Virus record (IMG/VR): IMGVR_UViG_3300050021_000500
Coordinates: 1-64,000 of that record
Length of the DNA stretch: 64,000 nucleotides
Source of the DNA: a virus
Reading direction: 5' to 3' (one strand)
Part shown: positions 5,318 through 57,080 of the stretch, piece after piece
Layout: each line of letters begins with the position of its first letter
Numbering within the stretch: position 1 is the stretch's first letter
Made by a program: the position numbers and the translations under genes
Notes under the pieces: generated by a model
Told to the model about the DNA's origin: nothing
Databases searched by the model: none
Seen by the model: only the letters and a program-made list of their open reading frames with translations

Positions 5318-5415
5318 CGGTGAAAGGCTTCGCGGATGGATGGCTGTGACGGTGCGGGCTCGTGATGCGCCGCCGGCCCAACCGTCGCCGTAGGACGGCG
5401 CTGGGCCGGCTCTGG
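5318..5415 (-). repeat. Paired hairpin element A (L-type; pairs with F)
   Basis: CCAGA GCCGGCCCAGC [GCCGT-CCT-ACGGC] GACG GTTGGGCCGGC GGCG..GAGC..CGAAGCCTTTC on - strand. Confidence 0.9.
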
Positions 5416-5493
5416 GGCCAACTGTCCACATGAAGTCCAAGGCAATTCTGACGCGCTATTGACAAAACACGCGAAAGCATGCGTAATGGAGTT

Positions 5494-5718
5494 ATGAATT
5501 CTGTGCAGGCGACACAACTCAGCGAGCGGCAAGTCGAAGAAGAATACGGCATCAACTCGCGTACTCTACAGGGGTGGCGAACCCGCAAGAAGGGGCCGCC
5601 GTACTTGAAAGTCGGCGGGACTTTGGTACGCTACAACCGCATCGAATTGGAGGCGTGGATAGAGTCGAGCCCGCATTATCTTTCAGTGCCCGGCGAACTG
5701 GCGAGCCGGGATGCCTAA
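5494..5718 (+). CDS. AlpA/excisionase-like winged HTH protein
   Basis: LSERQVEEEYGINSRTLQGWR..KGPPYLKVG..VRY; TTGACA-N17-TAATGG upstream at ~5459. Confidence 0.85.
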   Translation: MNSVQATQLSERQVEEEYGINSRTLQGWRTRKKGPPYLKVGGTLVRYNRIELEAWIESSPHYLSVPGELASRDA

Positions 5719-6238
5719 AATACGCCGGTGGCGTGAACGTAGAACAGTCAAACCACTTCCGGGTCCTATCCTCAAGGGGACCATGCATCTGTTGCTGGAA
5801 GTGTTTGACGTATGTCCGGAAAGCGGCTATGTGCCGCACGTCAATCCGAACATTGCGCGCAGGTATGAAGCCCTTAGCGAGGAAGCCTTGTCAACACTGT
5901 TGTCCCAATTCCCAGACGTCCTGCTGCACAGTGATTGGGAAAGTGACGATGGAGGCCAGGCCGTGGTGATGATGGTAATGGCCCTTCGCCAAATTACCCA
6001 TGGCGTTATCCAGGCAACCGATCATGAATTGGACATTTGGGCCAGGAACCTAACCGTCATGATGCCCCAGGAAGGTCTTCGCCGACTTCACTATGTGGAG
6101 ATTGATGACTTTCCGGGGCCTACGTCTGGGCTCTGGCGCGAAGATTTGAGCTTCCATCAACGCATGGGCTGGGCGGCCCCAACACTGGAATCCACTCTGG
6201 CTGAAGTAAAACGGCGTGGTCTGGACTTCCCTGTTTGA
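5711..6238 (+). CDS. Hypothetical protein
   Basis: 175-aa ORF overlapping the AlpA stop. Confidence 0.55.
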   Translation: MPKIRRWRERRTVKPLPGPILKGTMHLLLEVFDVCPESGYVPHVNPNIARRYEALSEEALSTLLSQFPDVLLHSDWESDDGGQAVVMMVMALRQITHGVIQATDHELDIWARNLTVMMPQEGLRRLHYVEIDDFPGPTSGLWREDLSFHQRMGWAAPTLESTLAEVKRRGLDFPV

Positions 6239-6504
6239 CAATGGATGACGACTTTACGGACGCCCTGCAATGTTTCGATAGAGGCCGTGTCCCGGACACG
6301 GAGAATCACTTCGGGGTCTCCATCGGATGAATGCGAAAGCTGCTGTTGTAAGCCGTTTTGAATTGCGTCGAGTACTGCTTCGTGACACGGCAAGTCGCCA
6401 GTCAGAACGACATGTATGGTTCTCGTTTTGTCGTGACAGTATACGCCCTCAGCGAGTTTGTGCATGCCCTTGAACGACGGCGTCAGTCGTGTGAGTTCTT
6501 TCAT
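6157..6504 (-). CDS. Hypothetical protein
   Basis: GGAG RBS, 115 aa. Confidence 0.45.
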   Translation of the reverse strand: MKELTRLTPSFKGMHKLAEGVYCHDKTRTIHVVLTGDLPCHEAVLDAIQNGLQQQLSHSSDGDPEVILRVRDTASIETLQGVRKVVIHCQTGKSRPRRFTSARVDSSVGAAQPMR

Positions 6505-6525
6505 AATGATTCTCCGGACAGCGCC

Positions 6526-6822
6526 TCAACCCCCGTCGGGCGGACGCTGATATCGACTGCCTTGTCCGAGTGTGACCAGGAAGCGCATCAGGCGGTCAAT
6601 AGAAAACTGGGTCAGGCGGCCGCGTTTCAGCGCGCTCACTTTCGGCTGGTTGATGCCGAGCAGTTTCGCCGCCTCTACCTGGGTAAGTCCCCGCTGTTCA
6701 ATGATCTTGTTGATGTGGCGCACGAGGTCCGACTTTGCCAGCATTTCGCCAGCATTAGCGAAGCCAATGTCAGCAAAGACATTCCCGCTCCCAGCGATAC
6801 TTTTAGCCATTCTCCCTTTCAT
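6526..6822 (-). CDS. XRE/HigA-like HTH antitoxin, no cognate toxin adjacent
   Basis: GSGNVFADIGF..A.E.LAK...RGLTQVEAAKLLGINQPKVSAL..GRL..FSIDRL. Confidence 0.85.
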   Translation of the reverse strand: MKGRMAKSIAGSGNVFADIGFANAGEMLAKSDLVRHINKIIEQRGLTQVEAAKLLGINQPKVSALKRGRLTQFSIDRLMRFLVTLGQGSRYQRPPDGG

Positions 6823-6839
6823 CCACTACGCCAAATGCT

Positions 6840-7262
6840 TCATGCTGCGGCGGAGCGCCCCACCCAGACGGCGGCCCTTCGCCGTGAAGTCGATGCCAGC
6901 CATTCGGCGTGCTCTAGCTCATCGGCCCGGAATTCAAGCACCTCAACCTCCGTCGATAATCGGTGCGTTCCGTCAGCGATTCGCATAGCGGCATTCCAGA
7001 AAACGCATTTGAAGGACTGACCCCCCACCATTCCCATGCGCTTGTTTTCGATGGAGGTGATGGTGCATTCCGTGAAACCCGGGAAGTCCGCACGGAGTTC
7101 CGATTCTAAGCGTTTCACTTCCGCCCAATACGGGGGGCATCCGGTGCCCTCCGGTATCACCCAATAAGGGTAGCATTCGGTTCCCTTCGGTTTCAGCTTC
7201 CCAATGAGAGGCAGCGCTCCCAGGAGAGGCAACAGGGCAAAAAGTTGGCGGCGATTCATCAT
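6840..7262 (-). CDS. Hypothetical protein with Tat-like N-terminus; C-terminal half paralogous to 1908..2318
   Basis: MNRRQLFALLPLLG; shared ~45-aa block. Confidence 0.65.
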   Translation of the reverse strand: MMNRRQLFALLPLLGALPLIGKLKPKGTECYPYWVIPEGTGCPPYWAEVKRLESELRADFPGFTECTITSIENKRMGMVGGQSFKCVFWNAAMRIADGTHRLSTEVEVLEFRADELEHAEWLASTSRRRAAVWVGRSAAA

Positions 7263-7280
7263 GGTTCAATCTTAGCTCCC

Positions 7281-7380
7281 CCAGAGCCGCTTCAGCGGGC
7301 CGTCTTCGGCCCGACGGTTAAAGCGGCGGCGCCGAGCAAGCGCCCCGCGCGCTGAGGCCAAGGCCCGATAGCTTTAAGCG
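7281..7380 (+). repeat. Paired hairpin element F (R-type; pairs with A)
   Basis: CCAGA GCCGCTTCAGC [GGGCCG-TCTT-CGGCCC] GACG GTTAAAGCGGC GGCG..AAGC..CCCGATAGCTTT. Confidence 0.9.
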
Positions 7381-9494
7381 TTAACGTTCGTTCTCCAGCG
7401 GATCCGGTCCACCTTGCCGCCCAGCGTGTCCGTTCGCAGATCCTTCCGTTCCGTGGGGACGGCGAGGATCATGGCCGACACGATGCCGCCGAATACGTTG
7501 ACCGGGTTGTTACGAAAATTGTTCGGGTTATAGAGCGGGATGTGGTGCTGATACAGCCGGTAATTGTGCTCCGTGAGCCAGAGGCCCAAGGCTTGCGTCG
7601 ATCCCTCGCGGTCGTTCTCCACGTAGATGAGCGGCCGGCAGCGCGCGATGGTCTGCTCCGCGCCTTTGAGGACGTCCAGCTCGTGACCTTCGCAGTCAGC
7701 CTTGAGGAAGTCCAGACATTGCAGTTGGAAACAATCGAGCGTATTCTGCATGACGGTGGGGCTCAACGGGTCGGTTGGCTGTTCTATAACGGCGCACCCG
7801 CCGGGGTTCCGTGCGTCGAATCCCTGCATCCGGATCTCGCGGCAACTGGCACCGAGAGCGGAGCGGAAACTATAGACGCCGGGGCGCCCCGCATTCTCAC
7901 ACAATATCTGGAAGACACCGAGTTGTGGCTCAAACGCGAAGACGCAACCGGTGGGGGCCACGATCTGCGCCAGCACCACGGTATGCGCGCCGATGTTGGC
8001 TCCGGCTTCCACGACCACATCGCCCGGCTTCAGCAGGCGGCGGAAGAGGCCGGCTTCACCTTCAGACCATTCCCCATAAAGGTCCAACGATCGGCCGAGC
8101 CATTGGTCTGTGGGGTAGAACGTCATCGGACCGTAGCGGCACTGGCGGGTGATGGTAGTTGCTCTTATAGGCTCGACACCAGTGTTCGTTTGCAGCGTCT
8201 GTACAGCGTCGGACAAGTCCCTCTTCACCCGCTCGATCACGGCCTGCCAATCGTTTGTCTCCTCCTGCCGGTAGAGCCGCATGGAGGGATACCATGGGGT
8301 CCGCGTCCCTTCCGCGCCCCACCGCCAGTCGCTCAACGTCGAAAGCAGCACCCACACCGGCTTGCCCAGCGCGCCCGCCAAGTGCGCCATACCGGTATCG
8401 ACCGAAATCACGAGGTCCAGATGGGCCATCTCGTCGGCTACGTCTGCCCAATCGTGGCAAAGGTCCCGCAGGTTATGCAGGCCCGATTCCGTGTCCTTCA
8501 TCTGAAGCGACACGAATTCGACGCCCGGAACCTCGAGCAGGGGCTTCAGGTGTTCGAAGGCCATGGAGCGGAACTCATCGCGCGCGTGCTTCGGGTTGCC
8601 CTTCCAGGAAAGACCCACGCGAAAGCTCGATGTCCGGGTGACCGCACGACCGAGATATGGCCCTGCGGTTTCGAGAATCCGAGCCGTACCCAGTTTCAGC
8701 GGCAAGCTGCTCATGCCCACCCAGCAATCCAGTTGCACGGTATGCGCCTCGGCATCCGAGGTCACAATTCGAGCCCAGGGAAACGCGCGGGCGAACAATC
8801 GCGCCAACTCCGGATAGCCGTAGACGATTACGTTGGCGCCCAGGTCATGCAGCAGCGGCAAATAGCGCGAGAACATGATCTCGTCGCCGAGCCCCTGCTC
8901 CCGGACCACCATGATGGTCTTGCCAGCGAGCGGCTCGCCATCCCACTCCGGGTATTCATCCATCGGGGCAACCAGGCTGATGCGGCTGGGCCGGTGCTCG
9001 TAGTCCTTCCACCCCTGCGCATAATCGCCTAGTTTCAACTTCAGGCAGGCGCGGGCGAAGAGCAGATCGTGGTTGCCGGGTTCGATCTGGAGCCCATCGC
9101 AGAGAGCCCAGCCGGCGCTTTCCACCAGGCCCTGTTGCTCGTAGATCGAATAGAGCTCGAGGTAGGCCGAGACGCACATCGGGTCGGCCATCAGGGCCTG
9201 CCCACACCAGTTGTTCGCCTGAGCAAAGTCTCTCAGGTGGTCGCACGCCAACGCCAGATTGATACACGGCAAGGGGTCCTTGCTATCCAGACTGGCCGCC
9301 TGGATGAAGCACTCACGCGCGCGTGTCCACTCTTTGGCTGCCATATGGCAGCGGCCGAGGCCGTTCCAGGCTTTGGCGTTGGCTTGGTCCAACTCCAGCG
9401 CCCATTCGTAGACCCGCCGGGTGATTTCCGACTCCTTGGGCTTGGCACCGGCCAGCTCGGCGAGGAAAGCGGCGAGTTCGGTGGCGCACGTCAT
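7374..9494 (-). CDS. TPR + glycosyltransferase (GT9-like) + FkbM methyltransferase fusion
   Basis: N-terminal TPRs; EQGLGDEIMFSRY, DLVISVDTGMAHLAGALG..WRW..TPWYPSMRL; then EAGANIGAHT, AFEP, FLKADCEGHE. Confidence 0.9.
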   Translation of the reverse strand: MTCATELAAFLAELAGAKPKESEITRRVYEWALELDQANAKAWNGLGRCHMAAKEWTRARECFIQAASLDSKDPLPCINLALACDHLRDFAQANNWCGQALMADPMCVSAYLELYSIYEQQGLVESAGWALCDGLQIEPGNHDLLFARACLKLKLGDYAQGWKDYEHRPSRISLVAPMDEYPEWDGEPLAGKTIMVVREQGLGDEIMFSRYLPLLHDLGANVIVYGYPELARLFARAFPWARIVTSDAEAHTVQLDCWVGMSSLPLKLGTARILETAGPYLGRAVTRTSSFRVGLSWKGNPKHARDEFRSMAFEHLKPLLEVPGVEFVSLQMKDTESGLHNLRDLCHDWADVADEMAHLDLVISVDTGMAHLAGALGKPVWVLLSTLSDWRWGAEGTRTPWYPSMRLYRQEETNDWQAVIERVKRDLSDAVQTLQTNTGVEPIRATTITRQCRYGPMTFYPTDQWLGRSLDLYGEWSEGEAGLFRRLLKPGDVVVEAGANIGAHTVVLAQIVAPTGCVFAFEPQLGVFQILCENAGRPGVYSFRSALGASCREIRMQGFDARNPGGCAVIEQPTDPLSPTVMQNTLDCFQLQCLDFLKADCEGHELDVLKGAEQTIARCRPLIYVENDREGSTQALGLWLTEHNYRLYQHHIPLYNPNNFRNNPVNVFGGIVSAMILAVPTERKDLRTDTLGGKVDRIRWRTNVNA

Positions 9495-10153: not shown

Positions 10154-11764
10154 TTACGCCACTGCCCCCACTTCATTTTTCGCCTGCTGTCGCGTGGCCA
10201 GCCGGTTGAAGCTCTGCGCAAAGGCCTGCTGCTGTTGAGCTACCTGCTGATCCTTCCCTTGCTGCTCGCGTTCCGCCGTGGTAGGCGATGCGTCGATTTC
10301 GTCGAAGATCGTTTGCTTGATGTCTTCGTTGCGGTCTTCGAGATAGTCCGCCGCCACTCGCTTCATACAGGCTTTTTCCAGCGTCTTGCTGGCTTCGAAG
10401 ATGCCAAGATCCAGCATCTCCTGGGCAGTCCCAATGGATTCGGTCACCGGCTCCGTGGTGAAGGTGAAACCAGAAACGTCCAGAGTGGTTGTCTCGTCGT
10501 CTCCCCCGCGGGCGACTACCACGTCGGCGAATACGTCCTGCATGACGTTGATGATGCGGTCGCCGAAGCCGTTGAGAATTTCGTTGGCCGGCATCATGTC
10601 TATCTCTTTCGAATAGCCGGAGGCTCCCGACGCCGAAGCGCTCGAAGATCGTCCCTGCGCCTGAAGGTAGAAACTTCGGTAGATTTCCTCGCGCAAGGTA
10701 TCGAGGCGGGCCTGCGAAAGCGCGTAACTGGCCGCCGGCGGCGCCGCCCATTCGAACTTGTCGTTCGGGCCGAACATCAGGTAGCCCACTTGCGAGATGG
10801 TCATCGGCCCGGGATCGCGGTCGCTGAACACAATCGGCATGGGGATGTTGCCCATGAACAAGCCCCAGGCCAGCGAATTGTCCTGGTTCAGGTGATCGAC
10901 CAATTGCAGGAAGCTGCGATTGCCCAGCCACAATTCCTCAGGCAACACGATACGGCGGATGGGCACCCGATTGACCGCGGCCAGGGCGTGCGTTCCCTCA
11001 TCTTCCAACTCGGCAAAGGCGCTTTCCTGCTGGATGTTTTTCCCGTTGGAATCGATCAGTTGAATGGTCTGACCGTCCGTGAATCCGTCCTGGTTCTTGC
11101 CCTGGATCGCCTTCTCGGTGCCGTCCCACTTGTAGACCTGGTATTTCTGCCGGTCGAAGTAATACCAGCGGATCACGGTCCCCGATGCTTCGAGAAACGT
11201 GCGCTGGTCCTCGATGGCTTTGATGACCACCCATTCCAGGTTGCCGGCTTCGTCCGTCGCCCAATTCAGCACGTCCTGCGGGGCGTACTGCACCACGTAG
11301 GGCTTGTCGAGGCCCATCTGCTGTTCATCGGCGCGGCTCTGCGGCTCCGCCAGGGCTTTCGGGCGGTCCGTCAGTATCCAGGCTCGGCCATAGAGCGCCA
11401 AGTTGCGGAACGTCGCCCGGTGAAAATCGCTGTAGGAGCTCGCGGCGCGGTCGCAATTGCCAAGGAACTCCTTGTACCAGGGATCGGCGCCATCCGGCTT
11501 GATGTTGATCTGTGGATTCCTGCGCCAGAGCTGCGAGGTATACCAGCCCAAGACGGTGCCCAGGATGTTCTGGTAGGTCAACCGGCGGATTCTTTCTGCG
11601 TATACATCAACGAGCTCCTTCGGCGCCCTCACCAGGAACTGCTCGGCCGCCTGCTTGAGCCGGATTCCCCCGGAGGCGAGAAGCTCGAACATCTCCCAGG
11701 CCTCAGAGTAAAGCACATGCTCAGGGGAGCGGCGGTTGAGTTTGGCAACGGGGACTTGGGGCAT
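10154..11764 (-). CDS. Portal protein
   Basis: 536 aa downstream of terL; Y..R..R..Y.N, YGRAWILTD, PY..QY.PQD.LNW, ASG.SKEID pattern of SPP1/DUF4055-like portals. Confidence 0.85.
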   Translation of the reverse strand: MPQVPVAKLNRRSPEHVLYSEAWEMFELLASGGIRLKQAAEQFLVRAPKELVDVYAERIRRLTYQNILGTVLGWYTSQLWRRNPQINIKPDGADPWYKEFLGNCDRAASSYSDFHRATFRNLALYGRAWILTDRPKALAEPQSRADEQQMGLDKPYVVQYAPQDVLNWATDEAGNLEWVVIKAIEDQRTFLEASGTVIRWYYFDRQKYQVYKWDGTEKAIQGKNQDGFTDGQTIQLIDSNGKNIQQESAFAELEDEGTHALAAVNRVPIRRIVLPEELWLGNRSFLQLVDHLNQDNSLAWGLFMGNIPMPIVFSDRDPGPMTISQVGYLMFGPNDKFEWAAPPAASYALSQARLDTLREEIYRSFYLQAQGRSSSASASGASGYSKEIDMMPANEILNGFGDRIINVMQDVFADVVVARGGDDETTTLDVSGFTFTTEPVTESIGTAQEMLDLGIFEASKTLEKACMKRVAADYLEDRNEDIKQTIFDEIDASPTTAEREQQGKDQQVAQQQQAFAQSFNRLATRQQAKNEVGAVA

Positions 11765-11774
11765 TCAGGGAGCC

Positions 11775-15910: not shown

Positions 15911-15916
15911 GGTTTA

Positions 15917-16022
15917 GGTTGAGAAGGCTTCGTGGTTGCGTGGCTTCTGCCAGGCGGCTCGTGCTCCGCCGCCGACGCTACCGTCATCGGGCAAAAGCGG
16001 CCCGATGCAGCATCGGCTCTGG
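15917..16022 (-). repeat. Paired hairpin element C (R-type stem, immediately upstream of terS)
   Basis: CCAGA GCCGATGCTGC [ATCGGGC..GCCCGAT] GACG GTAGCGTCGGC GGCG..GAGC..CCACGAAGCCTT. Confidence 0.9.
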
Positions 16023-22462: not shown

Positions 22463-22515
22463 GGCTATACTCCTTGTTCTTGTTGGATTTCTTTGGTACT
22501 CCGCGCAAAACTCAG

Positions 22516-22618
22516 CGGTTAAAGGGTTCGAGGTTTGGTGGCTTCAGGGTGCGCGCTCGTGATGCGCCGCCTGGCCCAACCGTCGCCGTGGGACGGCGCT
22601 GGCCCGGCTCTGAAGTCA
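22516..22618 (-). repeat. Paired hairpin element B (L-type; pairs with G)
   Basis: TGACTTCAGA GCCGGGCCAGC [GCCGT-CCC-ACGGC] GACG GTTGGGCCAGGC GGCG...CTTTAACCG. Confidence 0.9.
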
Positions 22619-22948: not shown

Positions 22949-23048
22949 TGACTTCAGAGCCGCTTCAGCGGCCGTAGGCCGACGGTTGAAGCGGCGGCGT
23001 GGAGCGAGCGCCTCGCACAAAAGGGCAGGACCCCGATAGCTTTAACCG
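22949..23048 (+). repeat. Paired hairpin element G (R-type; pairs with B)
   Basis: TGACTTCAGA GCCGCTTCAGC [GGCC-GTA-GGCC] GACG GTTGAAGCGGC GGCG...CTTTAACCG. Confidence 0.9.
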
Positions 23049-23205
23049 GAGCGGAATTCAGGCCGTCTATTGGATCGCTCCATGCTTCATACACGCGATC
23101 TGAACCGACAGCGGAGGTTTCGAACTTCTCGCGCTTTACGGGACCATAGGCGCGAATGAAGCCGAGCGGGCGCCGCAACTCTCTGCCGTCGGGGCCAAGG
23201 ATCAT
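22954..23205 (-). CDS. Hypothetical protein reading into element G
   Basis: Coupled to nusG-like stop (ATGA). Confidence 0.45.
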   Translation of the reverse strand: MILGPDGRELRRPLGFIRAYGPVKREKFETSAVGSDRVYEAWSDPIDGLNSAPVKAIGVLPFCARRSLHAAASTVGLRPLKRL

Positions 23206-47515: not shown

Positions 47516-47844
47516 CGGAGAGAATGCCGGACGTATTTATTGGCGTTATAGACGATGTGAAACATGCAATCGCGTTCGCCCGGATGATCCAGCCGGCCTA
47601 CCAGCGACAGCAATGGAAATGGATTGCCGGCGGATTTAAGCGGGTTCCGACCGTCGCCGATATTGCCGAGACGATTGAGTTACTCGCTCGCGGAGTAGCC
47701 GATGGAGAAGCATTCGCTTCCACCGGAGGATTGACGGTGCGACGCGGAAATCGCCTCTATGTCAGTCCAGTGCTGAAGCCGGACAAACTGGTCTTCAGGC
47801 AGCGTGCGCAGAGGCTGTTGGCCAATGGGGAGACAACATCATGA
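47512..47844 (+). CDS. Hypothetical protein
   Basis: W.W....VPT..I......L.......STGGL.V. Confidence 0.6.
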   Translation: MTERMPDVFIGVIDDVKHAIAFARMIQPAYQRQQWKWIAGGFKRVPTVADIAETIELLARGVADGEAFASTGGLTVRRGNRLYVSPVLKPDKLVFRQRAQRLLANGETTS

Positions 47845-48674
47845 CGGAGAAAATGTCGAAGGGTTCCGCGCGGAAGGGCGAGTTGCCCGCCCTCCCGCCA
47901 GCCCAACCGTCGCCCGCAAAGCCGGGCGCTGGGCCGGCTCTAGAGAATACCGTCCTGATCCTGCGTACATGCAGTGCCGACATGCTGAGCCACGGCGGCT
48001 TTCGGTGGCCGGAGAGCGGCCCAGTGGAGGTACCTGACTGGAATCCAAAGCATGTATGCGGCGGTGGCTTGCACGGTCTGCTGTGGGGTGAGGGCTCCGT
48101 CTCGTACCTCAATTTGGATGAGTTGGCCAAGTGGATCGTGTTCCGCGCCCAGATGGCCGATTTGGCGCATGGCACCGGCGAACTGATCGACAAGTGTAAG
48201 GCCCGCGCGGGAACGGTGGAATACTGCGGATGTCGCGACGGGGCAATCAGCTACCTCATGGCCAATGGTGCCGCAGGAAAAGCGGTTGTCTTCGGCACGG
48301 CGACGGCGGGCGACAGCGGCACGGCGACGGCGGGCTACAGCGGCGTGATTACCATCCTGTACTGGAATGACAAGCGCTATAAGGCTCGCATCGCGCAGGT
48401 CAAGGACGAAGACGGATACGGCGAGCTGGAGCCCAACACGCCGTATAGGCTGAACGTTCAAGGGAACTTTACCAGAGCCGATGCTGCGCCGCGCTCTGGC
48501 GGCGACGGTAGCATCGGCGGCGTGGAGCGAGCGGGGACGGGCACGGTAGAACAGCCACGGAGCCTTTCTCCGTTGAATCCTACCGGGGATATTTTTATGA
48601 TTGCTGACATCATCTTTGCATCTGGTTGGCTGGTAGTTGGACTGGCTCTAATTTTCAGGAGACGCCTGCGATGA
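47841..48674 (+). CDS. Phage protein (HGGF.WP/CG.GLHG family); both termini are translated hairpin elements
   Basis: SHGGFRWPESG.V..PDW...CGGGLHG; GTATAG repeats. Confidence 0.7.
   Translation: MTEKMSKGSARKGELPALPPAQPSPAKPGAGPALENTVLILRTCSADMLSHGGFRWPESGPVEVPDWNPKHVCGGGLHGLLWGEGSVSYLNLDELAKWIVFRAQMADLAHGTGELIDKCKARAGTVEYCGCRDGAISYLMANGAAGKAVVFGTATAGDSGTATAGYSGVITILYWNDKRYKARIAQVKDEDGYGELEPNTPYRLNVQGNFTRADAAPRSGGDGSIGGVERAGTGTVEQPRSLSPLNPTGDIFMIADIIFASGWLVVGLALIFRRRLR
47844..47943 (-). repeat. Paired hairpin element I (L-type; pairs with D)
   Basis: TAGA GCCGGCCCAGC [GCCCG..CGGGC] GACG GTTGGGCTGGC...TTTCTCCGT. Confidence 0.9.
48472..48573 (+). repeat. Paired hairpin element D (R-type; pairs with I)
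   Basis: CCAGA GCCGATGCTGC [GCCGC..GCGGC] GACG GTAGCATCGGC GGCG...TTTCTCCGT. Confidence 0.9.
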
Positions 48675-49885: not shown

Positions 49886-50286
49886 CGCACGCCGATGCAG
49901 CGCGCGCGTATGCCGCAGCCTACGCCAAAGCCAGCGACGCCCAGTTGATGAATCCGCCCGATGCGATTCGCGCGCATGCCCTGGGCATCTCGATTCCAGA
50001 AACATCGCCATTATCGACCGTGGAGTATACGTGTCCGGTGGTACCGGACAGCCGGACATCCGGCGACAGCCGGTCCTACAACCATGACGGATGCGTCACG
50101 AGATGGTTGCAGGAACGGGATGCCCGGGAGCGGGCCGAACGGGCAGCGTCCGACTGGCGCGAGGCCGCCAACGACTGGTGCAACCGGGCTGAGAGGGCGC
50201 GAAAAAGAGTTCGCGCTCTGACCTGGGTGACTTGCCTGGCTATCTTTGCGGCGGGTCTGGCATGGTGGATCAATGCCCATCCGTAA
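49882..50286 (+). CDS. Hypothetical protein with C-terminal TM
   Basis: Coupled ORF. Confidence 0.55.
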   Translation: MTHADAARAYAAAYAKASDAQLMNPPDAIRAHALGISIPETSPLSTVEYTCPVVPDSRTSGDSRSYNHDGCVTRWLQERDARERAERAASDWREAANDWCNRAERARKRVRALTWVTCLAIFAAGLAWWINAHP

Positions 50287-50854: not shown

Positions 50855-51135
50855 AGTCCGAAATCGAGAAACTATCCGCGCTGGTGGAGCGCCAGCGGCA
50901 GACCATTGCGCGCCTGTCGGCTCCCGGCATCGAGCGGGCGCCCTGGTTTTACGCGCCCTGCTCCAACTGCGGAGCCATCGAAGGCATGGGGCTGACGACG
51001 CCAGAAATCGATGGGGCGCGAAAGCCCGGATACAGCTCGCTCTGGTGCATCCGGGTGTTTTGGTGTTGGTCAAGTTGCTAAACCGCTGTAAGCCGCGGGA
51101 GATTGTTCGCGAGATGCCAATTCAGCACAAGGCGA
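50797..51135 (+). repeat. 41-bp direct repeat (50797-50837 and 51095-51135) flanking one gene
   Basis: GCGGGAGATTGT(A/T)CG(T/C)GAGATGCCAATTCAGCACAAGGCGA. Confidence 0.9.
50851..51081 (+). CDS. Small Zn-ribbon protein inside the direct repeat
   Basis: CSNCG..WC..C. Confidence 0.5.
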   Translation: MKSEIEKLSALVERQRQTIARLSAPGIERAPWFYAPCSNCGAIEGMGLTTPEIDGARKPGYSSLWCIRVFWCWSSC

Positions 51136-51151
51136 TGCCGGAGGTAAAGCG

Positions 51152-52030
51152 ATGACGACAGAAGAAGCTGTACAAGCGATCACGGTGGCGCTGGATCGCC
51201 GGTGCTGCCATCAGTGCCACGGCGCGGGGACGGTTAGCGTGATGGGTGGGCAGGTGTTCGAGACGGATTCGGATGAAGAGGCCCAACTGGCGTACCAAAC
51301 TGTGGCTTGCCCGACATGCATCAAGGTCCGAGCCGACGCTCTCGCCGCGCTGGAGGAGATGCGGAAGGACTCGGAGCAAACGGCAGAAGAGCCGACGCAT
51401 ATCTACCACGCTTGTGGCTATATCGATGAGGGCGGTCCTGGATTCCCTTGCACAAATTCTGTTGAGCTTGGGAAACATTGTGAAGGCCATACAGATCCGG
51501 CAGAGCAGAAGACCGCTAATGCCGACGCTGCCATCGAACAGGCCGAGGATGAGCATATACGACGATTTGGCGGCGAATGGGGAGATGAGCATACGGAAGA
51601 TCGTAAGGCTTGGGCGGCACAGAGGGCTGGGGCCGCTTGCCAGTGCCCGGCGCGGATAGCGATCCGGTTATTTCTATCCGGGCTCGCGCCAGCCTCCCTT
51701 GGTAGACAGATGTATTTTTTGAAAGATCGGACGGAACTTGAATCCGCCCTCTCCGCCCGCTGCCCATGCTGCGCGGAGCGGGATGAAGCGATCCACACGC
51801 GCAGCCTGGCTCAAGCGGCGAGCACGCGGGATCTGGAGGCGAAGCGGGCAGTGGAAGAAAAATTACGGCTTGCGCTGGACATAAATGACCTCCTGCGGGC
51901 GCGGGTGCCGTTGGAGCCTGGCGCGAACACAAATACGGCGCCGGTAAATCCGCTATTGGTGGGGACTAATGCGCCGAAAGCGTTAAAGCCGCAGGGCCTG
52001 GCGGGCATTGAGAGCGGAGGGAAAAGCTGA
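51152..52030 (+). CDS. Mosaic Cys-rich hypothetical protein
   Basis: CHQCHGAG and other Zn motifs. Confidence 0.55.
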   Translation: MTTEEAVQAITVALDRRCCHQCHGAGTVSVMGGQVFETDSDEEAQLAYQTVACPTCIKVRADALAALEEMRKDSEQTAEEPTHIYHACGYIDEGGPGFPCTNSVELGKHCEGHTDPAEQKTANADAAIEQAEDEHIRRFGGEWGDEHTEDRKAWAAQRAGAACQCPARIAIRLFLSGLAPASLGRQMYFLKDRTELESALSARCPCCAERDEAIHTRSLAQAASTRDLEAKRAVEEKLRLALDINDLLRARVPLEPGANTNTAPVNPLLVGTNAPKALKPQGLAGIESGGKS

Positions 52031-52719
52031 TGCCTGAGAAGTTGCTGAAGCCCCCCGCGCTGAGGAGCGACCCGCTCGCGATCCCGCCGGCCCAGCCGTC
52101 GTCCGCAAAGCCGGGCGCTGGACCGACTCTGAGCCATGAGGAGTTGCGGAAACGTGCAGTCCAGTGGTTGACCAATACCAAGCGCTGTGGCGTCGTCTTG
52201 TCGGAGATCGTTACAGGTTGCTCCGAGATCCCCGACGCCATCGGGTGGCGCGGCCACACCTCCTACATTGTGGAATGCAAAACAAGCCGTTCCGACTTCC
52301 GTGCGAATAAAACCAAAATTCACGCGCGCTGTAACCGTGGCGTCGGACAGTTCCGCTACATCATGGTGCCGAGATGCCTGACGGATCAGGTATTGAAATC
52401 AGAAGCGCCGGTACGGCCTGAAGACCTGGAAGGTTCGGACTACGGATTACTCTGGTGCTCGGCAGAATCCGGCACGGTTCGAGTGATGAAGGAAGCGACC
52501 GTGCGCGAACAATGCCAGGATGACGAGATCACGATGCTAGTGTCGGCATTGCGGCGCGTGCGCGCAAGAGAGTTCTTAATTCTTGTCCAAGAAACGCAGC
52601 AGGACTCCAGAGCCGATGCTGCGCCGCGTTCCGGCGGCGACGGTAGCATCGGCGGCGTGGAGAGAGCGCCCCGAACCACAGAGCAACCCGCCCCAGCACC
52701 TTCTCAGGAGAACGCTTAA
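52030..52719 (+). CDS. PD-(D/E)XK (MmcB-like) nuclease; both termini are translated hairpin elements
   Basis: EIPDAIGW...VECKTSRSDF...G..RY..P. Confidence 0.75.
   Translation: MPEKLLKPPALRSDPLAIPPAQPSSAKPGAGPTLSHEELRKRAVQWLTNTKRCGVVLSEIVTGCSEIPDAIGWRGHTSYIVECKTSRSDFRANKTKIHARCNRGVGQFRYIMVPRCLTDQVLKSEAPVRPEDLEGSDYGLLWCSAESGTVRVMKEATVREQCQDDEITMLVSALRRVRAREFLILVQETQQDSRADAAPRSGGDGSIGGVERAPRTTEQPAPAPSQENA
52033..52131 (-). repeat. Paired hairpin element J (L-type; pairs with E)
   Basis: CAGA GTCGGTCCAGC [..] GACG GCTGGGCCGGC...CAGCAACTTCTCAGG. Confidence 0.9.
52607..52708 (+). repeat. Paired hairpin element E (R-type; pairs with J)
   Basis: CCAGA GCCGATGCTGC [..] GACG GTAGCATCGGC...CAGCACCTTCTCAGG. 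Confidence 0.9.
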
Positions 52720-52971
52720 ATGCACTGTGAACACATGAACTTGCCCGGCGGTGGTTCCGTCATCGTCTGTGGGCCGAAGAAGGCAACGAAGAAATGCTCG
52801 GTATGTGGAAGGGGAAGCCGGGAGTATCGGCTCTGCGACTTCCCAATGCAGGCTGGGAAAACTTGCGACCGGATCTTGTGCCCAGCATGCGCAACGCACC
52901 AGAAACCGAATCTTGATTACTGTCCTCAGCACGCGGCGCTGTTGACGCCGGAAGGGAGACTGAAGCTGTGA
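52720..52971 (+). CDS. Cys-rich zinc-finger protein
   Basis: CSVC..LCD.P..TCD..LC..CA...DYCP.H. Confidence 0.7.
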   Translation: MHCEHMNLPGGGSVIVCGPKKATKKCSVCGRGSREYRLCDFPMQAGKTCDRILCPACATHQKPNLDYCPQHAALLTPEGRLKL

Positions 52972-53171
52972 CGGATGTTGAATTCTTCGAGCAGATTGCC
53001 AACCAGGCGGAGACCGTGCGCCAAGAGGTGCGGGCGCGGAACGTCCCCGGTGATGCGAGTATCGGCGTGGAGATGCTGTGCTACTACCTCCGCGAGGTGC
53101 ACAATAAGGCGCTGATGGCAGCCCGGCGGATCGAGGAAGTAGCGGCGGTGGCCAAGGCTGCGGGGGATTGA
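52968..53171 (+). CDS. Hypothetical protein
   Basis: Coupled ORF. Confidence 0.5.
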   Translation: MTDVEFFEQIANQAETVRQEVRARNVPGDASIGVEMLCYYLREVHNKALMAARRIEEVAAVAKAAGD

Positions 53172-53557
53172 AACAGATGAGCAAGATTCCTGAGAAACCG
53201 GTGAGCGAGTATGTCCCTTCTCCAGGCCGTGCCGACGCTCCTGGAAGCGGGCGAACCCGCCTGATCGGAGCCCTGGTCCCAACTTTCCAGGTCGAGTGCG
53301 GTATGTGCGAACGCCACTCAATCGGCACGATCGCGGACGGTGTGGACTACGCGGCAAATAGTAAACGAGTGGCCGGACGGATACTGCGCCGCGCGGGCTG
53401 GGGCCGGTCCTCCGTCTGGGGGTGGATTTGCCCCAGGTGCGTGAAGGTCGGTTGCGCCAGCCGACAGCCTGGATTCGAGCCGCACTCGATCAAGAAAAGC
53501 GAACCACGCTCCCCCAACTGTTCACTAATGCCGGAGACTATACCGTGCCTAGGCTGA
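53168..53557 (+). CDS. Zn-ribbon protein; N-terminus overlaps possible divergent element M
   Basis: CGMC...GW....WICPRC. Confidence 0.55.
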   Translation: MKQMSKIPEKPVSEYVPSPGRADAPGSGRTRLIGALVPTFQVECGMCERHSIGTIADGVDYAANSKRVAGRILRRAGWGRSSVWGWICPRCVKVGCASRQPGFEPHSIKKSEPRSPNCSLMPETIPCLG

Positions 53558-54261
53558 AATCCTGGATTTCGCGGGTTCCTTATATTCTGGAACAACTTAA
53601 CTCGGTTACCCCGACCGTCTATACCAGGCGGGAAGTGGAGCAACTGTTCACTATCCGAAAGGTGAAAGCCATCGATTTGATGCGCGTTGCCGGCGCGAGG
53701 ATTGAGCACGGAATGGAGGCGGAAGTCACCCGCGAGAACCTCAAATTCTACGTCGAGCACTGCCCGGAGGCGATCTCCTATTACGCCGAGCAGGCCCGCC
53801 GAAAGCGGATGGCGAGGGATCTGCTGGAGAAGGAATCGGCGCGGGACGCTATTGTCCGGTTCAGCCAGATGATTGCCAGCCGGCTGAAGCCCGCAGACCA
53901 ACGCATCGAGTTCGACAGCAAGAAACTGGCCGAGTGCCTTTCGATTGGCCCGGGGATTCTGACGCTCCGGTTTAGCGATTCCCACGACTTGGCCTACAAG
54001 ATGGCTCTGCTGGCCATGGCAGGGCATAACGACGGCGAGACGCTCTGGGGAAAATGCGACCCACCGCGGGGAGTGCCCTTCGCCGGCGAACCGAAGTACA
54101 CCCTGCTCAACCATCCGTTCACCACGCACCCGACGTACACCGGCAAGGGATGCGCCATGTGCGGGAGGCCTGAAGCGGTTCATGTGGACATGACAGGCGC
54201 GCTCCGCTTGGCCACCCCGGAAGAAAGAGCACGGATTATGTCAGAGGAGTTGGTGGCATGA
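53545..54261 (+). CDS. Hypothetical DNA-binding protein
   Basis: GGAG RBS + GTG; YTRREVEQLF HTH-like. Confidence 0.55.
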   Translation: MPRLKSWISRVPYILEQLNSVTPTVYTRREVEQLFTIRKVKAIDLMRVAGARIEHGMEAEVTRENLKFYVEHCPEAISYYAEQARRKRMARDLLEKESARDAIVRFSQMIASRLKPADQRIEFDSKKLAECLSIGPGILTLRFSDSHDLAYKMALLAMAGHNDGETLWGKCDPPRGVPFAGEPKYTLLNHPFTTHPTYTGKGCAMCGRPEAVHVDMTGALRLATPEERARIMSEELVA

Positions 54262-55375
54262 GGGCACCGCTCTGCGTCGAACTGTTTGCTGGCCGATTTG
54301 GTTGGGGCCGCGGCTTTGTGTCTGAAGGCTTCCGAGTGGTCGGATTCGACATCGTTCACGAACCCTATCACGGTGAGGTTCCAAACGGCTGCCAACTCGT
54401 GCTTCAGGATGTGCTCACCCTCCATGGCTCACAGTTTAGGGACGCAACGTGCATCGTGGCTTCGCCGCCCTGCCAACGCTTCAGCTATATGGCGATGCCC
54501 TGGACGCGAGCGAAAGCACAAGCCGCTGAGATCCGCGCGGATAAAAGCGGCGCCGCGATGGCAGAATTGACTGCCTTGTTCGACTCTTGCTTCCGTATCC
54601 AGCACGAAGCCAGCGAAGCGGCTGGCCGCCATATCCCGCTGGTGGTAGAAAACGTGAAAGGTGCCCAACCTTGGGTTGGGAGGGCGAGGGCTCACTTTGG
54701 AAGCTACTATTTATTCGGCGATGTGGAATCGGTTAGCGGCGCCATCGTGGCATCGGTTCCCCGGTTCGGGCAAGTGCTGCGCGTCAAGCGGTCGCAGAAA
54801 TTCAACCCGGACGGATCGCAGCATGGTCAAGGCTCATGGTTTGCCATTGCCGACTCCAAGAATAGGGGCGCGCAGAAACGTGATGGCCGCGACTCCCACG
54901 CCTTTGAAAACGGGCTCGAGTCATCACCGAGTTTCAACGGCGCGGAACATGAAACGCGGCACGTGAAAGTGCCGGGCATGAATTGGAGCGGGTCGGATCA
55001 GCCAGGATATAAGGCTGTATGTTTCCGAGATGAAGGCGCGCGGCAACGAAAGAACGACGGTGGCTCCTGGTTCGCAGTGGCGCACAATACCAAAAGCGGC
55101 ACAGGGCAGAATCCGGTGAACGGACTGAAAACGGTCGGCCACGTGAACAAGCGAGATGGATTCGACCACACGCGACGCCTGACGAACCAGAGGGAATCGG
55201 ACGCCGTGAAGCAGCATCTATCCGGGCCGGAGTGGGCGCGGCATCCGTATCCTCCAAATCAGACAGCCGCAAAGCGGCCTCGGCCATGATCGCGGAGATT
55301 CCCTTCGACCTGGCGCGATACATCGCGCGATGTTTCAAGCCCGCAACAGCGGGTAGATCGGAGACCACTGCATGA
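54258..55375 (+). pseudogene. C5-cytosine DNA methyltransferase-like gene, frameshifted near 55235
   Basis: ELFAG..G, ASPPCQ.FS, VENV; C-terminal SKSDSRKAASAMIAEIPFDLARYIA lies in another frame ending at an ATGA junction (55375). Confidence 0.75.
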
Positions 55376-55689
55376 CGCCCCAACAATTTGCCGACCGCAT
55401 GAACCGGATGACGGGTGAGGAGATCGCCCAAGCGATGGAATCGCTGCCTACAGACGCGCTGGAGTGGGGTGTGAAGTTCGAGGCACTGGGCAACATGCCT
55501 GAAAAGCTGCCGAAGGGTTCCACGCTGAAACGTGACCCGTGCGTGATCCCGCCAGCCCAACCGTCGCCAGCAGAGCCCGGCGCTGGGCCGGCTCGGAAAT
55601 ACTGTAACTGCATCCACGGCACCGATGCCGGCCGGTACTGCGTGATCCGGCACGCTCCGTACTGCGCGCTCCATGGGGAGCACGCTTGA
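55372..55689 (+). CDS. Hypothetical protein containing translated element K
   Basis: Coupled on both sides. Confidence 0.45.
   Translation: MTPQQFADRMNRMTGEEIAQAMESLPTDALEWGVKFEALGNMPEKLPKGSTLKRDPCVIPPAQPSPAEPGAGPARKYCNCIHGTDAGRYCVIRHAPYCALHGEHA
55498..55596 (-). repeat. Paired hairpin element K (L-type; pairs with H)
   Basis: CCGA GCCGGCCCAGC [GCCGG..CTGGC] GACG GTTGGGCTGGC...TTTTCAG. Confidence 0.9.
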
Positions 55690-57080
55690 GCTATCGGATC
55701 ATCTGCGGTGACGCGCTGACAGTGCTGAAGACGATGCCCGAGGAAAGCGTGCAGTGCTGTGTGACGAGTCCGCCGTACTGGGGCCTCCGCGATTACGGCG
55801 TGGTCGGGCAACTTGGCTTGGAGCCCACCATCGAACTGTACATCGCCCATATCGTCGAGGTGTTCCGTGAAGTGCGGCGGGTGCTCAAGAACGATGCGAC
55901 GCTCTGGCTGAACATGGGGGATTCCTACTGCTCCGATGCCGGCGCCGATAGAAAACCCACCACGCTTGCCGGAGCCCGTGTCCCTTCTGGATGGACAAAT
56001 AGAGCGCAGCCACATCGGGTTCATGCACTCCGTAAGGGCAAAGATAAAGACCCGAAGCGCGGGGCGTCCGCCGACAGCGCCGTGATTTCTGCGGTAACCG
56101 GCCTAAAACCGAAAGACCTCTGCATGATCCCGGCGCGCGTCGCGTTGGCGCTGCAAGCGGATGGCTGGTGGCTCCGCTCAGAGATTGTGTGGCACAAGCC
56201 CAACCCGATGCCTGAGAGCATCCGGGATCGTCCGACCAAAAGCCACGAGATGCTCTACCTACTGTCGAAGAGCGAGAGGTACTTCTACGACGCGGACGCC
56301 ATCAAGGAGCCGACTACGGGCAGCGCCCACGATAGAGCGCGTAAGAACCGCGCCGCCGATGGGCAGAAGACGCTGCCGACAGCGGAACGAAACGGGGTGC
56401 GACCGGCATTTGAGCGCCTCGGACGCGAAGGCCTGAACAGTCGCATGCACCAAGACCGCGACGCCAATCATTCGAGCGAGCGGAAGGTCCGCGCGCCCGG
56501 CGTGAACCCGAAGGCGCAGAAGTGGCCCAACGCATGGAGTGCTGAAGACGGCCGCCACGATGGAATCGGCAACGGTCGTTTCCGCCCGAGCGGCAACAAA
56601 GAGCGCAAACTCGCGGGCCCGGCGAATGGACGCCTGGAGACGCACATGGGCAGCGGCGTGCCCTGGCCGCCGCAGATTCGTCCCAAGCAGAACGAATCAT
56701 TTTCGGCAGCGGTAGTGCGAACAGTGGAGCGGCGCAACCGGCGCACCGTCTGGACCATCGCAACGAAGCCATTCAGCGGCGCCCACTTCGCCACCTTCCC
56801 ACCGAAGCTGATCGAGCCCTGCATCCTGGCAGGCTCCCGGCCCGGTGACGTGGTGCTGGATCCGTTTGGGGGCGCGATGACCACGGCCCTGGTGGCGCAA
56901 GAGCATGGCAGGGATTCAGTGATGATCGAATTGAAGCCCGAGTACGTGAAGATGGGCGACGCGCGACTCGCTGACGCCAGAGCCGGTTCAGCGCCGGTCC
57001 TCCGGCGACGGTTTGAACCCGGCGGTGTGGAGCAAGCGGACACGGGCGCGGCGAAGAAACCACGGAGCCTTTTTCAGTAA
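55686..57080 (+). CDS. N4-cytosine/N6-adenine DNA methyltransferase (beta class)
   Basis: TSPPYWGLRDY, IVWHKPNPMPES, HFATFP, VLDPFGG. Confidence 0.92.
   Translation: MSYRIICGDALTVLKTMPEESVQCCVTSPPYWGLRDYGVVGQLGLEPTIELYIAHIVEVFREVRRVLKNDATLWLNMGDSYCSDAGADRKPTTLAGARVPSGWTNRAQPHRVHALRKGKDKDPKRGASADSAVISAVTGLKPKDLCMIPARVALALQADGWWLRSEIVWHKPNPMPESIRDRPTKSHEMLYLLSKSERYFYDADAIKEPTTGSAHDRARKNRAADGQKTLPTAERNGVRPAFERLGREGLNSRMHQDRDANHSSERKVRAPGVNPKAQKWPNAWSAEDGRHDGIGNGRFRPSGNKERKLAGPANGRLETHMGSGVPWPPQIRPKQNESFSAAVVRTVERRNRRTVWTIATKPFSGAHFATFPPKLIEPCILAGSRPGDVVLDPFGGAMTTALVAQEHGRDSVMIELKPEYVKMGDARLADARAGSAPVLRRRFEPGGVEQADTGAAKKPRSLFQ
56977..57077 (+). repeat. Paired hairpin element H (R-type; pairs with K)
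   Basis: CCAGA GCCGGTTCAGC [GCCGG-TCCT-CCGGC] GACG GTTTGAACCCGGC...TTTTCAG. Confidence 0.9.

Follow-up and report, generated by a model that had tools for sequence, protein, structure and literature searches.

Why should a phage genome carry a family of hairpins that stand in inverted pairs around its accessory genes? The 83,914-bp contig of an 83.9-kb peat phage (G000) holds 13 copies of such a unit, 11 of them in the window analysed here (bases 1-64000, the whole stretch of 64,000 nucleotides). We posit that these ~105-nt units are structured terminal modules of cassettes that are mobile or exchangeable within a small group of peat phages, a tentative reading to which we give a probability of about 0.4.

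A folded unit in inverted pairs

The unit is a previously undescribed, ~105-base folded DNA/RNA element. The 11 copies and five head-inward pairs named in a preliminary description of the window are all present, the foot-and-stem pattern being exact in eight copies and carrying one mismatch in three, and a regular-expression search of the whole contig adds a sixth pair beyond the window, whose heads lie at 67101(-) and 67454(+). A covariance model (CM) trained on 18 copies recovers 13 copies from G000 at E <= 4e-20, the next match lying at E 0.07. Their strand order along the contig (-,+,-,-,+,-,+,-,+,-,+,-,+) resolves into six head-inward pairs, each with 343-1868 bp between its heads, and the solo unit C; when 13 elements were placed at random 200,000 times, six such pairs never arose and at least three arose in 2.3%. 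Five other IMG/VR or metagenome contigs contribute a further 12 or 13 copies, and single copies account for 1 of 13 in G000, 4 of 8 in a second phage contig (G001) and the only copy in a third (G002). Upstream ends score 74-88 bits and downstream ends 79-96 bits in the CM, so that both end types are kept equally well.

Each copy has a 4-nt CAGA foot, followed by an 11-bp outer stem on an invariant GCCG/CGGC base, an inner hairpin that varies in length and sequence, and a 3' GACG bulge, all of which were recovered in folds of the copies; the 3' part is a ~45-nt spacer and a pyrimidine-rich tip. GGCGG directly follows the stem, and the T-rich motif described earlier is indeed present 43-47 nt away, with one invariant T. 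An intrinsic terminator was considered and rejected, since it is GGCGG, and not a T-run, that stands directly 3' of the stem.

With 25 copies aligned to the CM, an alignment itself fitted to the structure, pairing is seen in 96.7% of cells versus 77.4% in shuffles, and 66 cells are changed on both sides versus 18.6 (0 of 500 shuffles as high in either measure). Compensatory change affects 9 of 16 pairs, while slid partners, as a control, are 21-51% paired; the covariation proposed for the stem core thus holds. Deviating pairs are mostly G.T, as had been noted (33 against 4 A.C), with 23 of the 33 supplied by a single G.T (G.U) pair kept in 23 of the 25 copies and 10 against 4 without it. The strand specificity that had been read from these deviations is suggestive only, the sense fold being stabler than the antisense in 20 of 25 copies with RNA parameters and hardly so with DNA parameters. 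Run over the entire window at E <= 1, an Rfam cmscan returned three weak matches, none overlapping a unit, in keeping with the earlier view that this is not an Rfam family.

The two hairpins of one pair have different stem cores in all eight independent pairs, and the tail tips match within pairs (summed longest common substrings of 46, a value reached by 30 of 720 permutations). G000 has two "chassis" types, at three loci each, with distinct left and right hairpin clusters, and tail-only and hairpin-only forms of the unit exist. Hairpin and tail are modules that reassort separately.

Cargo and translation through the units

The units and their cargo in the window are as follows (scores in bits from the CM).

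5311..5414, minus strand: unit A, left end of A/F; 91.7 bits, GSCCA-type stem; tail runs into the Shine-Dalgarno sequence and start of gene 5290-4808
5415..7281: A/F cargo block (Pfam), within the stretch 5305-7394 that is missing in relative L003
5494-5718, plus strand: A/F cargo, HTH_17 (AlpA-like)
5783-6238, plus strand: A/F cargo, ORF
6526-6810, minus strand: A/F cargo, HTH_37/XRE
6840-7262, minus strand: A/F cargo, ORF with its own Shine-Dalgarno sequence and ATG
7282..7387, plus strand: unit F, right end of A/F; 82.3 bits, CTTCA-type stem; tail holds the stop codon of a 706-aa gene (7374-9494, minus strand)
15911..16021, minus strand: unit C, solo; 74.2 bits; in the leader of a leftward structural operon (HTH protein, terminase, portal, head; PHROGs)
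22509..22612, minus strand: unit B, left end of B/G; 83.1 bits
22613..22954, minus strand: B/G cargo, one ORF (22633-22938, minus strand) of 101 aa with no Pfam family
22955..23055, plus strand: unit G, right end of B/G; 78 bits; translated on the minus strand by ORF 23205-22954, which ends at the unit's head
47838..47942, minus strand: unit I, left end of I/D; 88.5 bits; its reverse complement holds an ATG (47841) overlapping the upstream stop, as well as the codons for the cargo ORF's first 34 aa
47943..48472, plus strand: I/D cargo, DUF7666-like core without its own start codon
48473..48579, plus strand: unit D, right end of I/D; 96.3 bits; translated within ORF 47841-48674
52027..52131, minus strand: unit J, left end of J/E; 83.2 bits; its reverse complement gives an ATG (52030) and N-terminal leader
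52132..52607, plus strand: J/E cargo, small PD-(D/E)XK nuclease core
52608..52714, plus strand: unit E, right end of J/E; 95.4 bits; C-terminal tail, stop (52719) and AGGAG ahead of the next ATG (52720)
55492..55596, minus strand: unit K, left end of K/H; 81.9 bits; within ORF 55372-55689
55597..56977, plus strand: K/H cargo, a 31-aa Cys/His-rich ORF end, then an N6/N4 DNA methyltransferase (55686-57080)
56978..57084, plus strand: unit H, right end of K/H; 78.6 bits; the methyltransferase ORF has its final 33 aa and its stop here

The cargo is diverse, comprising a DNA methyltransferase, a PD-(D/E)XK nuclease, a DUF7666-like protein, HTH regulators and a tRNA-Met, the last in a cassette that lies antisense between tail genes and is bounded by the same unit ends. 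Pfam confirms the methyltransferase (PF01555, 4e-47) and both A/F regulators; the DUF7666 match is below cut-off (21 bits vs 27). The nuclease proposed for J/E has no Pfam match, but its PD...ExK residues are invariant across 16 aligned homologs. Of these homologs, 14 come from outside P0001; in the eight shortest of the 14 (145-167 aa), just 0-12 residues of their own precede the conserved core.

In the plus-strand block the units are translated, being open in the reading frames used: one orientation supplies a start codon and N-terminal leader, the other a C-terminal tail with stop and Shine-Dalgarno sequence. Thus, insertion at a gene junction stays translatable. The same unit-encoded leader opens three unrelated ORFs in G000, two in G001 and one in L229, and unit-encoded tails close three ORFs. 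Upstream ends, antisense to the operon mRNA, are translated through, and units B, F, C, L and M, in minus-strand blocks, are untranslated.

Gain, loss and transplantation among relatives

Both the empty sites and the cargo swapping that were sought in relatives were found, and they support the gene-cassette system of the preliminary description. L003 joins window position 5305 to 7394, so that the entire A/F cassette is absent; this is the only high-identity empty site, and not a clean one. In the distant relative L231, the two tail genes that flank L/M abut directly, and no unit is present. The J/E cargo together with both of its hairpins (window 52076-52660) matches L004 4916-5500 at 99.66% identity, and there the flanks on both sides are unrelated to those in G000; sequencing run X9 shows the same flanks as L004. 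Similarly, one contig of a peat metagenome (run X3) diverges exactly before base 48473, with other cargo adjoining the head of D, and in L229 an I-like unit is fused in frame to a different cargo family. A variant contig at unit H joins 57068 to 57366 within the T-run. On these comparisons, cassettes bounded by units are gained, lost or transplanted as blocks. Most of what the preliminary description named as refuting is not seen: no Rfam family matches, cargo varies and covariation is significant, but single copies do occur.

Breakpoints are scattered, falling at the head, ~10 nt past the stem, in the T-run or at the tip, a scatter more in line with general recombination than with a single precise cut. 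We saw no target-site duplication, and the contigs of four runs, which cannot exclude such forms, held no inverted form or excised circle; none of 13 listed joints in these contigs, which cannot show minor forms, changes strand. The units themselves stand out against their surroundings: the first 72 nt of unit C (hairpin and next ~16 nt) are identical in L003 amid DNA that is 90.7% identical, and G000 and G001 units share 73-88% identity over 48-109 nt (blastn pieces), with the shared proteins 25-36% identical apart from one at 53%. By these measures, the units are better conserved than the genomes carrying them.

Cassette ends and competing readings

Paired units point outwards, and therefore each cassette strand bears a correctly oriented hairpin near its 3' end. 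If the units are indeed terminal modules, they would be cis-acting sites for cassette movement or swapping, with cargo exchanged through recombination inside shared units or at their edges. New insertion at a gene junction would need a factor that reads the folded hairpin and conserved bulge on the outward-running strand, with joining likely at the tip or T-run and at small palindromes at gene junctions. Such a factor would probably be of host or helper origin, since no candidate enzyme is common to the carrier phages: the search for genes accompanying the CM found no recombinase, HUH enzyme, primase or NusG paralog common to all carriers. A Y1 HUH enzyme (PF01797) is absent from all three phage contigs (G000, G001, G002), a tyrosine integrase occurs only in G001, and two small serine recombinase genes of the resolvase family (20722-21288 and 35559-36173) occur only in G000. 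The single-stranded DNA recombination site suggested in the preliminary description is thus not established.

Parts of this anatomy recur in known systems. As in integron attC cassettes, cargo is varied and promoter-less, and the hairpin is imperfect and bulged, with extrahelical bases (here the 4-nt GACG), a variable terminal structure, a fold conserved more than its sequence and strand asymmetry. In attC, conserved core sites pair at the stem base; the unit stem base lacks them, each cassette has two inverted sites in contrast to one direct site in integrons, whose sites stand beside a gene for the tyrosine recombinase IntI, and PF00589 is absent from G000 and G002. REP/BIME, RAYT REPtrons and IS200/IS605 ends share the conserved 5' tetranucleotide foot before an imperfect hairpin (CAGA here) and inverted pairs that can bracket a gene; unlike REP and IS200/IS605, the units are of greater length and carry a distal tail, and paired units occupy opposite strands, whereas IS200/IS605 ends or PATE use one strand. 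Unlike REPtrons and IS200/IS605, no Y1 HUH gene accompanies the units in the phage contigs. Pack-MULE and MITE-like non-autonomous elements have ~100-bp terminal inverted repeats around captured ORF cores expressed as chimeras, an arrangement that the units resemble; in contrast to these elements, no transposase was found and no target-site duplication seen, the repeats are selected for their internal fold, and stem sequence is not the same at the two ends.

A more specific form of the cassette-end reading is doubtful, and we think it rather unlikely: a cassette-integration system of a new kind in phages, in which single-stranded hairpin ends, one per strand near the 3' end, are read by a structure-specific enzyme that joins cassettes into small palindromes at gene junctions, the ends doubling as translation adaptors. 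Were it true, bare ORF cores, even a tRNA, could be plugged into an operon without polar effects.

The strongest competitor to the cassette-end reading, possible though on the unlikely side, is that the units punctuate RNA: the sense unit would pause, terminate, process or re-license RNA polymerase leaving the cassette, perhaps with a NusG paralog taking part, and shuffling would be a by-product of repeated homology. The solos are sense to local transcription in five of six cases, just upstream of gene starts, and together with the G.U-tolerant, sense-stable stems they favour an RNA role against the cassette-end reading. A recruitment site of ops/RfaH or LoaP type would go with a NusG paralog and stand in the leader of the regulated operon; among the units, C alone is in an operon leader, and the bulge region may resemble the ops consensus. 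Genes for a full-length NusG/RfaH-family protein and an ECF-like sigma factor occur in both G000 and G002, and in G000 these two genes flank cassette B/G. Outward-facing insulators would account for the symmetry, including that of the antisense tRNA cassette. Precedent comes from the promoter-early stem-loop cassettes (PeSLs) of T4-type phages, where a sigma-70 promoter and terminator stem-loop form a repeated short structured intergenic motif that flanks non-essential genes, marks insertion, deletion and replacement boundaries between related phages, and drives modular shuffling of regulatory cassettes (PMC2839356). The present units differ in forming inverted outward-facing pairs, in being longer (~105 nt) and often translated, and in having a conserved bulge and foot. 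Unlike PeSLs, they have no detectable promoter or terminator: unit C has no sigma-70-like promoter or terminator-like site, and none of 22 terminator-like sites in 44001-64000 overlaps any of the six units there, while a canonical terminator (hairpin and T-run) lies at 58070-58100. The RNA 3'-end structure suggested earlier is therefore not borne out, no unit being followed by a T-run. Further against RNA punctuation, the upstream ends are conserved equally although antisense and translated, neither a NusG paralog nor a sigma factor occurs in the 76.6 kb (73% complete) of G001, which has eight units, and no Rfam family matches.

Three other readings are each improbable. Inverted pairs with short matched tips, in a phage with two serine recombinases, could be sites of a serine invertase or resolvase that switches cassettes on and off, as in invertible segments of the Hin/Gin/Mpi type, a reading of very low probability given that G001 and G002 encode no serine recombinase, that stem cores differ between the hairpins of a pair, and that relatives differ by insertion, deletion and transplant, never by inversion. 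Priming signals that face each other, each hairpin directing primer synthesis at its distal T-rich site so that cargo is copied inwards, would suit a hairpin 5' of a conserved distal site, one per strand near the 3' end, and in G001 a Prim-Pol/D5 helicase gene is found directly downstream of the array; yet Prim-Pol occurs in one of three contigs (G001), no primase was identified in G000, solo, tail-only or hairpin-only forms exist, and nothing explains why cassettes should need private origins, so that this proposal of the preliminary description is not substantiated and we rate it highly unlikely.

Similarly slim are the chances of a selfish palindromic repeat (REP/ERIC/RPE-like) that spreads by itself, is tolerated when translated and pairs around cargo only secondarily. 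Palindromic elements within Rickettsia genes are translated in frame, as the units are, REP anatomy is likewise a foot and bulged hairpin, and solo copies exist. Against this, of six and a half positions in G000, six hold closely spaced head-inward pairs with accessory cargo between them, and no Y1 transposase occurs in the three phage contigs. REP elements have many intergenic copies in a bacterial chromosome; among the bacterial-genome pattern matches listed here (at least 120), none scored like a true unit; the CM gave four weak matches of 22-32 bits on bacterial loci L062-L161, where true units reach 56-96 bits, and no match at E <= 0.001 on L162-L181 and 64 other loci; and the search suggested earlier in Acidobacteriota, a phylum that may not be the phage host's, gave matches in 0 of 156 genomes.

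Finally, almost no weight attaches to the idea that selection acts on the shared N- and C-terminal peptides themselves, for instance as targeting or processing signals: unit-encoded leaders and tails do recur on unrelated ORFs, but compensatory stem changes alter the peptides, five units are untranslated, and the tRNA cassette has the same ends.

Structure and distribution of the units

The carrier is a tailed phage whose source record spans 83,914 bp (the window being its bases 1-64000) at a CheckV completeness of 85%, with the following landmarks.

Landmark genes assigned by PHROGs
Window 2385-3326, major head protein
Window 10154-11764, portal
Window 14208-15569, terminase large subunit
Contig 73568-77191, tape measure protein

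All 11 copies of the ~105-nt unit counted in the preliminary description were recovered, the foot-and-stem pattern matching eight of them exactly and three with one mismatch, and a regular-expression search over the whole contig revealed a sixth pair beyond the window, copies L and M, with heads at 67101 (-) and 67454 (+). A covariance model trained on 18 copies finds 13 copies in this contig, G000, at E <= 4e-20, the next best match having an E of 0.07. The same model finds eight copies in a second carrier, G001 (76,583 bp), one in G002 (31,830 bp), two in G003 (5.8 kb, identical to locus L004) and one in G004 (11.9 kb, identical to the near relative L003). The solo copy C recurs on a fragment at 99% identity (L009), and scanning metagenomes for stems of the GSCCA class gave four stretches, one of them a true further copy on the 1,157-bp contig L229. 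Six tight head-inward pairs from 13 copies arose in 0 of 200,000 random placements.

Each copy folds from a CAGA foot into an 11-bp outer stem and an inner hairpin of variable length, with a 4-nt GACG bulge on the 3' side; 3' of the stem lie GGCGG and a semi-conserved C(G/A)AGC, ~45 nt in all, and then the pyrimidine-rich tip, whose consensus in G001 is CCTTCTCAGG. The proposed covariation is borne out: over 25 copies aligned to the model, an alignment that leans toward structure, 96.7% of cells pair compared with 77.4% in shuffles (reached by 0 of 500), cells altered on both sides number 66 compared with 18.6 (again 0 of 500), nine of 16 pairs show compensatory change, and slid partners give 21-51% pairing. 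The statement that most deviations are G-T pairs holds over all positions (33 G.T vs 4 A.C), but the G.T pair adjoining the bulge is itself conserved in 23 of the 25 copies, and without it the tally is 10 vs 4. The accompanying idea of a strand-specific fold is suggestive and unproven, because under RNA parameters 20 of 25 copies have a sense hairpin stabler than the complementary one, with the upstream ends most biased, and DNA parameters give only a small difference. As had been supposed, no Rfam family fits the units in an Rfam search. Two further ideas were dropped: a Rho-utilisation role for the spacer, whose C-minus-G balance runs from -10 to +12 with inconsistent sign, and the long-range pairing of cassette ends predicted in whole-cassette RNA folds, which is not evidence since any inverted repeat would give it.

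An IMG/VR scan anchored on bulge and tip gave 46 stretches, namely L010 and 45 new loci; of the latter, compared with the model, L198 alone matched, itself part of the already known G001. Flanking-protein searches of IMG/VR yielded just one mosaic fragment (L025) and one distant relative (L231), and the N-terminal 40 aa encoded by the unit, used as a peptide query, retrieved one protein. Among the matches listed for bacterial genomes (at least 120 stretches; 100 + 20 loci searched), the covariance model found no true unit. None of 156 Acidobacteriota genomes (5 + 151) matched, a result that does not show absence, as only 25-150 candidates were scored per genome and the host may belong to another phylum. 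A limited literature search found nothing relevant to the element.

Cassettes as exchangeable blocks

The six pairs enclose the following genes.

Cargo of the cassettes in G000
A/F: AlpA-like HTH protein, XRE-type HTH protein, two unknown proteins
B/G: 101-aa unknown protein
I/D: DUF7666-like protein, below the Pfam cut-off
J/E: small PD-(D/E)XK nuclease, named 'Holliday junction resolvase-like' by one source
K/H: N6/N4 DNA methyltransferase
L/M: contig 67125-67197 (L024 3125-3197), +, tRNA-Met (CAT), opposite strand to the tail genes

The tRNA is the sole recognisable gene in L/M and lies antisense between tail genes of 1,324 and 1,523 aa. Among the carrier contigs the J/E nuclease occurs in G000 and G003 only; lacking homologs in G001 and G002, it was dropped as a partner candidate. 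At G001 68968-70642 (L059 8968-10642), two near-identical direct units bracket a Dam-type methyltransferase and one ORF, and the unit array terminates at a Prim-Pol/D5 helicase gene.

The earlier reading of these elements as a gene-cassette system is upheld by comparison among relatives, where cassettes vary as blocks that are absent, transplanted or filled with new cargo. The near relative L003, syntenic and 89-92% identical to this phage, joins window position 5305 to 7394 and therefore is without the whole A/F cassette and both units; its 706-aa gene ends 3 nt ahead of the next ATG, and in this single case the empty site forms a small palindrome with tip-like arms, between which the cassette sits in G000. 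In the distant relative L231 (45% aa identity), two tail genes abut or overlap free of units, and their G000 equivalents are separated by a 587-nt cassette. Transplantation is seen at window 52076-52660, comprising the J hairpin, nuclease core and E hairpin, which is 99.66% identical to L004 4916-5500 within unrelated flanks; flanks of the L004 type appear as loose ends in peat metagenome run X9, and P0001, a homologous nuclease protein, shows a third flank combination around the same type of core. In run X3, one contig begins to match at the head of D (base 48473) and has different sequence ahead, and in L229 an I-like unit continues in frame into another cargo family, members of which have their own start codon in G001. 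A variant contig joins 57068 to 57366, dropping a 297-nt one-gene segment inside the T-run of H with CTTT repeated on both sides. A joint of 47940 to 48500 in X3 was left out, its shorter side having 21 letters only. Taken together, the data show that these structured terminal units form a family bounding exchangeable accessory-gene cassettes.

Within the units, hairpin and tail are separable modules. Hairpins occur without tails in L004, and a third copy in G001, at 71237 past the two direct units, has a tail only; in G000 the modules reassort, the hairpin of M being F-type but its tail J/K-type, and the stem of C being D/E-like but its tail A/B/L-type. Stem class differs between the two members of a pair in 8 of 8 independent pairs, and tips match more within pairs than across them, the observed longest-common-substring sum being reached by 30 of 720 permutations. 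Two 'chassis' types serve three loci each in G000, one with A/B/L and F/G/M ends and the other with I/J/K and D/E/H ends.

Reading frames across the units

In the + strand block, the reverse complements of I and J supply an initial ATG that overlaps the preceding gene's stop; K has the same ATG, but inside ORF 55372-55689, which starts upstream. The + strand frame crosses the hairpin into a cargo core without its own start codon, and D, E and H share a single reading frame with a stop at or past the tip. Among 14 nuclease homologs aligned outside P0001, the eight shortest (145-167 aa) have only 0-12 native residues ahead of the conserved core, which supports the suggestion that at J/E the unit took the place of the nuclease's natural start. 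The tip-encoded ATG starts two more ORFs in G001. In - strand blocks the units are mostly untranslated, and therefore translation, tolerated and exploited, is not the selected function; a role as protein tags is a minor alternative. Past D, the frame enters a 25-aa hydrophobic peptide (MIADIIFASGWLVVGLALIFRRRLR) at window 48609-48674 (+), which may represent an independent small membrane ORF starting at an ATG of its own.

Candidate mechanisms and factors

We suggest, at a probability of roughly 40%, that the units act at the DNA level and are what makes the cassettes move or swap. This reading is favoured because both ends are equally conserved whichever way transcription runs, the unit ends point outward, the same chassis occupies several loci, and the units are far better conserved than the carrier genomes: blastn pieces of 48-109 nt from the units of these two carriers, G000 and G001, match at 73-88%, whereas the shared proteins are 25-36% identical with one exception at 53%, and therefore the units either pass from phage to phage or are under a very strong shared constraint. 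Cargo exchange would proceed by recombination inside shared units, which would explain the scatter of the breakpoints, and a first insertion at a new gene junction would require an additional component. A strand change was seen in 0 of 13 listed joints and an excised form in none of the contigs of X3, X5, X7 and X9, in which minor forms are invisible; inversion of the cassettes is a minor alternative, as are roles as priming signals or as a selfish repeat.

The main rival, on balance unlikely, is that the units are PeSL-like RNA punctuation elements and recombination a mere by-product. It draws on the solo copies, which are sense-oriented in 5 of 6 cases and immediately upstream of genes, C sitting in the late-operon leader, as well as on the G.U tolerance of the stems and the presence of a NusG paralog. 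Arguing the other way, the units do not have the form of canonical terminators, and at the upstream ends they run antisense to the operon. No RNA run is listed as containing the stretch. RNA punctuation and a DNA-level role are not exclusive, and both can hold.

Phage uptake and shuffling of accessory genes is largely attributed to illegitimate or homologous recombination, and to our knowledge dedicated boundary elements are few, namely the PeSLs of T4-like phages and the attC sites of integrons. In function the element is closest to PeSLs and integron cassettes, and in hairpin form to REP or attC sites, but it fails the defining features of each testable family, and we therefore file it as a variant among the repeated elements that mark the borders of exchangeable gene cassettes. 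That it is a dedicated new integration system seems to us improbable. The unit described here is compact, strongly structured and covarying, in carriers whose proteins share so little identity. Should a dedicated mechanism use the units as its cis-acting sites, they would represent a new way for genes to move through soil viromes, with a portable design that permits operon insertion without polar effects; as RNA punctuation signals, they would be a new RNA motif that may link to the phage-encoded NusG paralog.

No factor common to all carriers was found in these contigs, which are 51-85% complete, so that gene absences are soft. The genes of note are as follows.

Candidate factors and other genes in the window
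20722-21288, -, small serine recombinase, resolvase/invertase type
21693-22217, -, ECF-like sigma factor
23202-23702, -, NusG/RfaH-family protein
29298-30086, -, PDDEXK_1 nuclease
34924-35319, +, 131-aa protein
35559-36173, +, small serine recombinase, resolvase/invertase type

The NusG/RfaH-family and sigma factor genes lie on either side of cassette B/G and are present in G000 and G002 (homologs at 33% identity) and not in G001. The former is full-length with NGN and KOW domains (PF02357, 1e-16), its best solved relatives being NusG (1.6e-9) and RfaH (3.7e-6). The two serine recombinases are confined to G000, a tyrosine integrase and Prim-Pol to G001, and a Y1 HUH enzyme is in none of the carrier contigs searched. 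The 131-aa protein, for which no family was found and which is better conserved between G000 and G001 (53% identity) than any other non-structural protein, was dropped as a partner, being membrane-like with a signal peptide and hydrophobic segments. Most early proteins have no family by PHROGs or Pfam. The PDDEXK_1 nuclease (4.5e-23) adjoins a 242-aa family-less protein common to G001, and the two may form a phage recombination module.

Three further structures lie in the window. On the - strand at 16100-16135, in the divergent control region ~80 nt upstream of C, GGGTTCAG...CTGAACCC forms a long hairpin that has a GC stem inside. At 39778-39827 (-), between two - strand genes, a match to Hammerhead_1 below threshold (22.7 bits against a gathering score of 34, E 0.58) has an intact CUGAnGA...GAAA core. 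Where + and - gene blocks converge, a 13-bp GC-rich hairpin at 58070-58100 has a T-rich tail (- strand) as well as an A-rich run (+ strand) and so resembles a canonical terminator acting in both directions.
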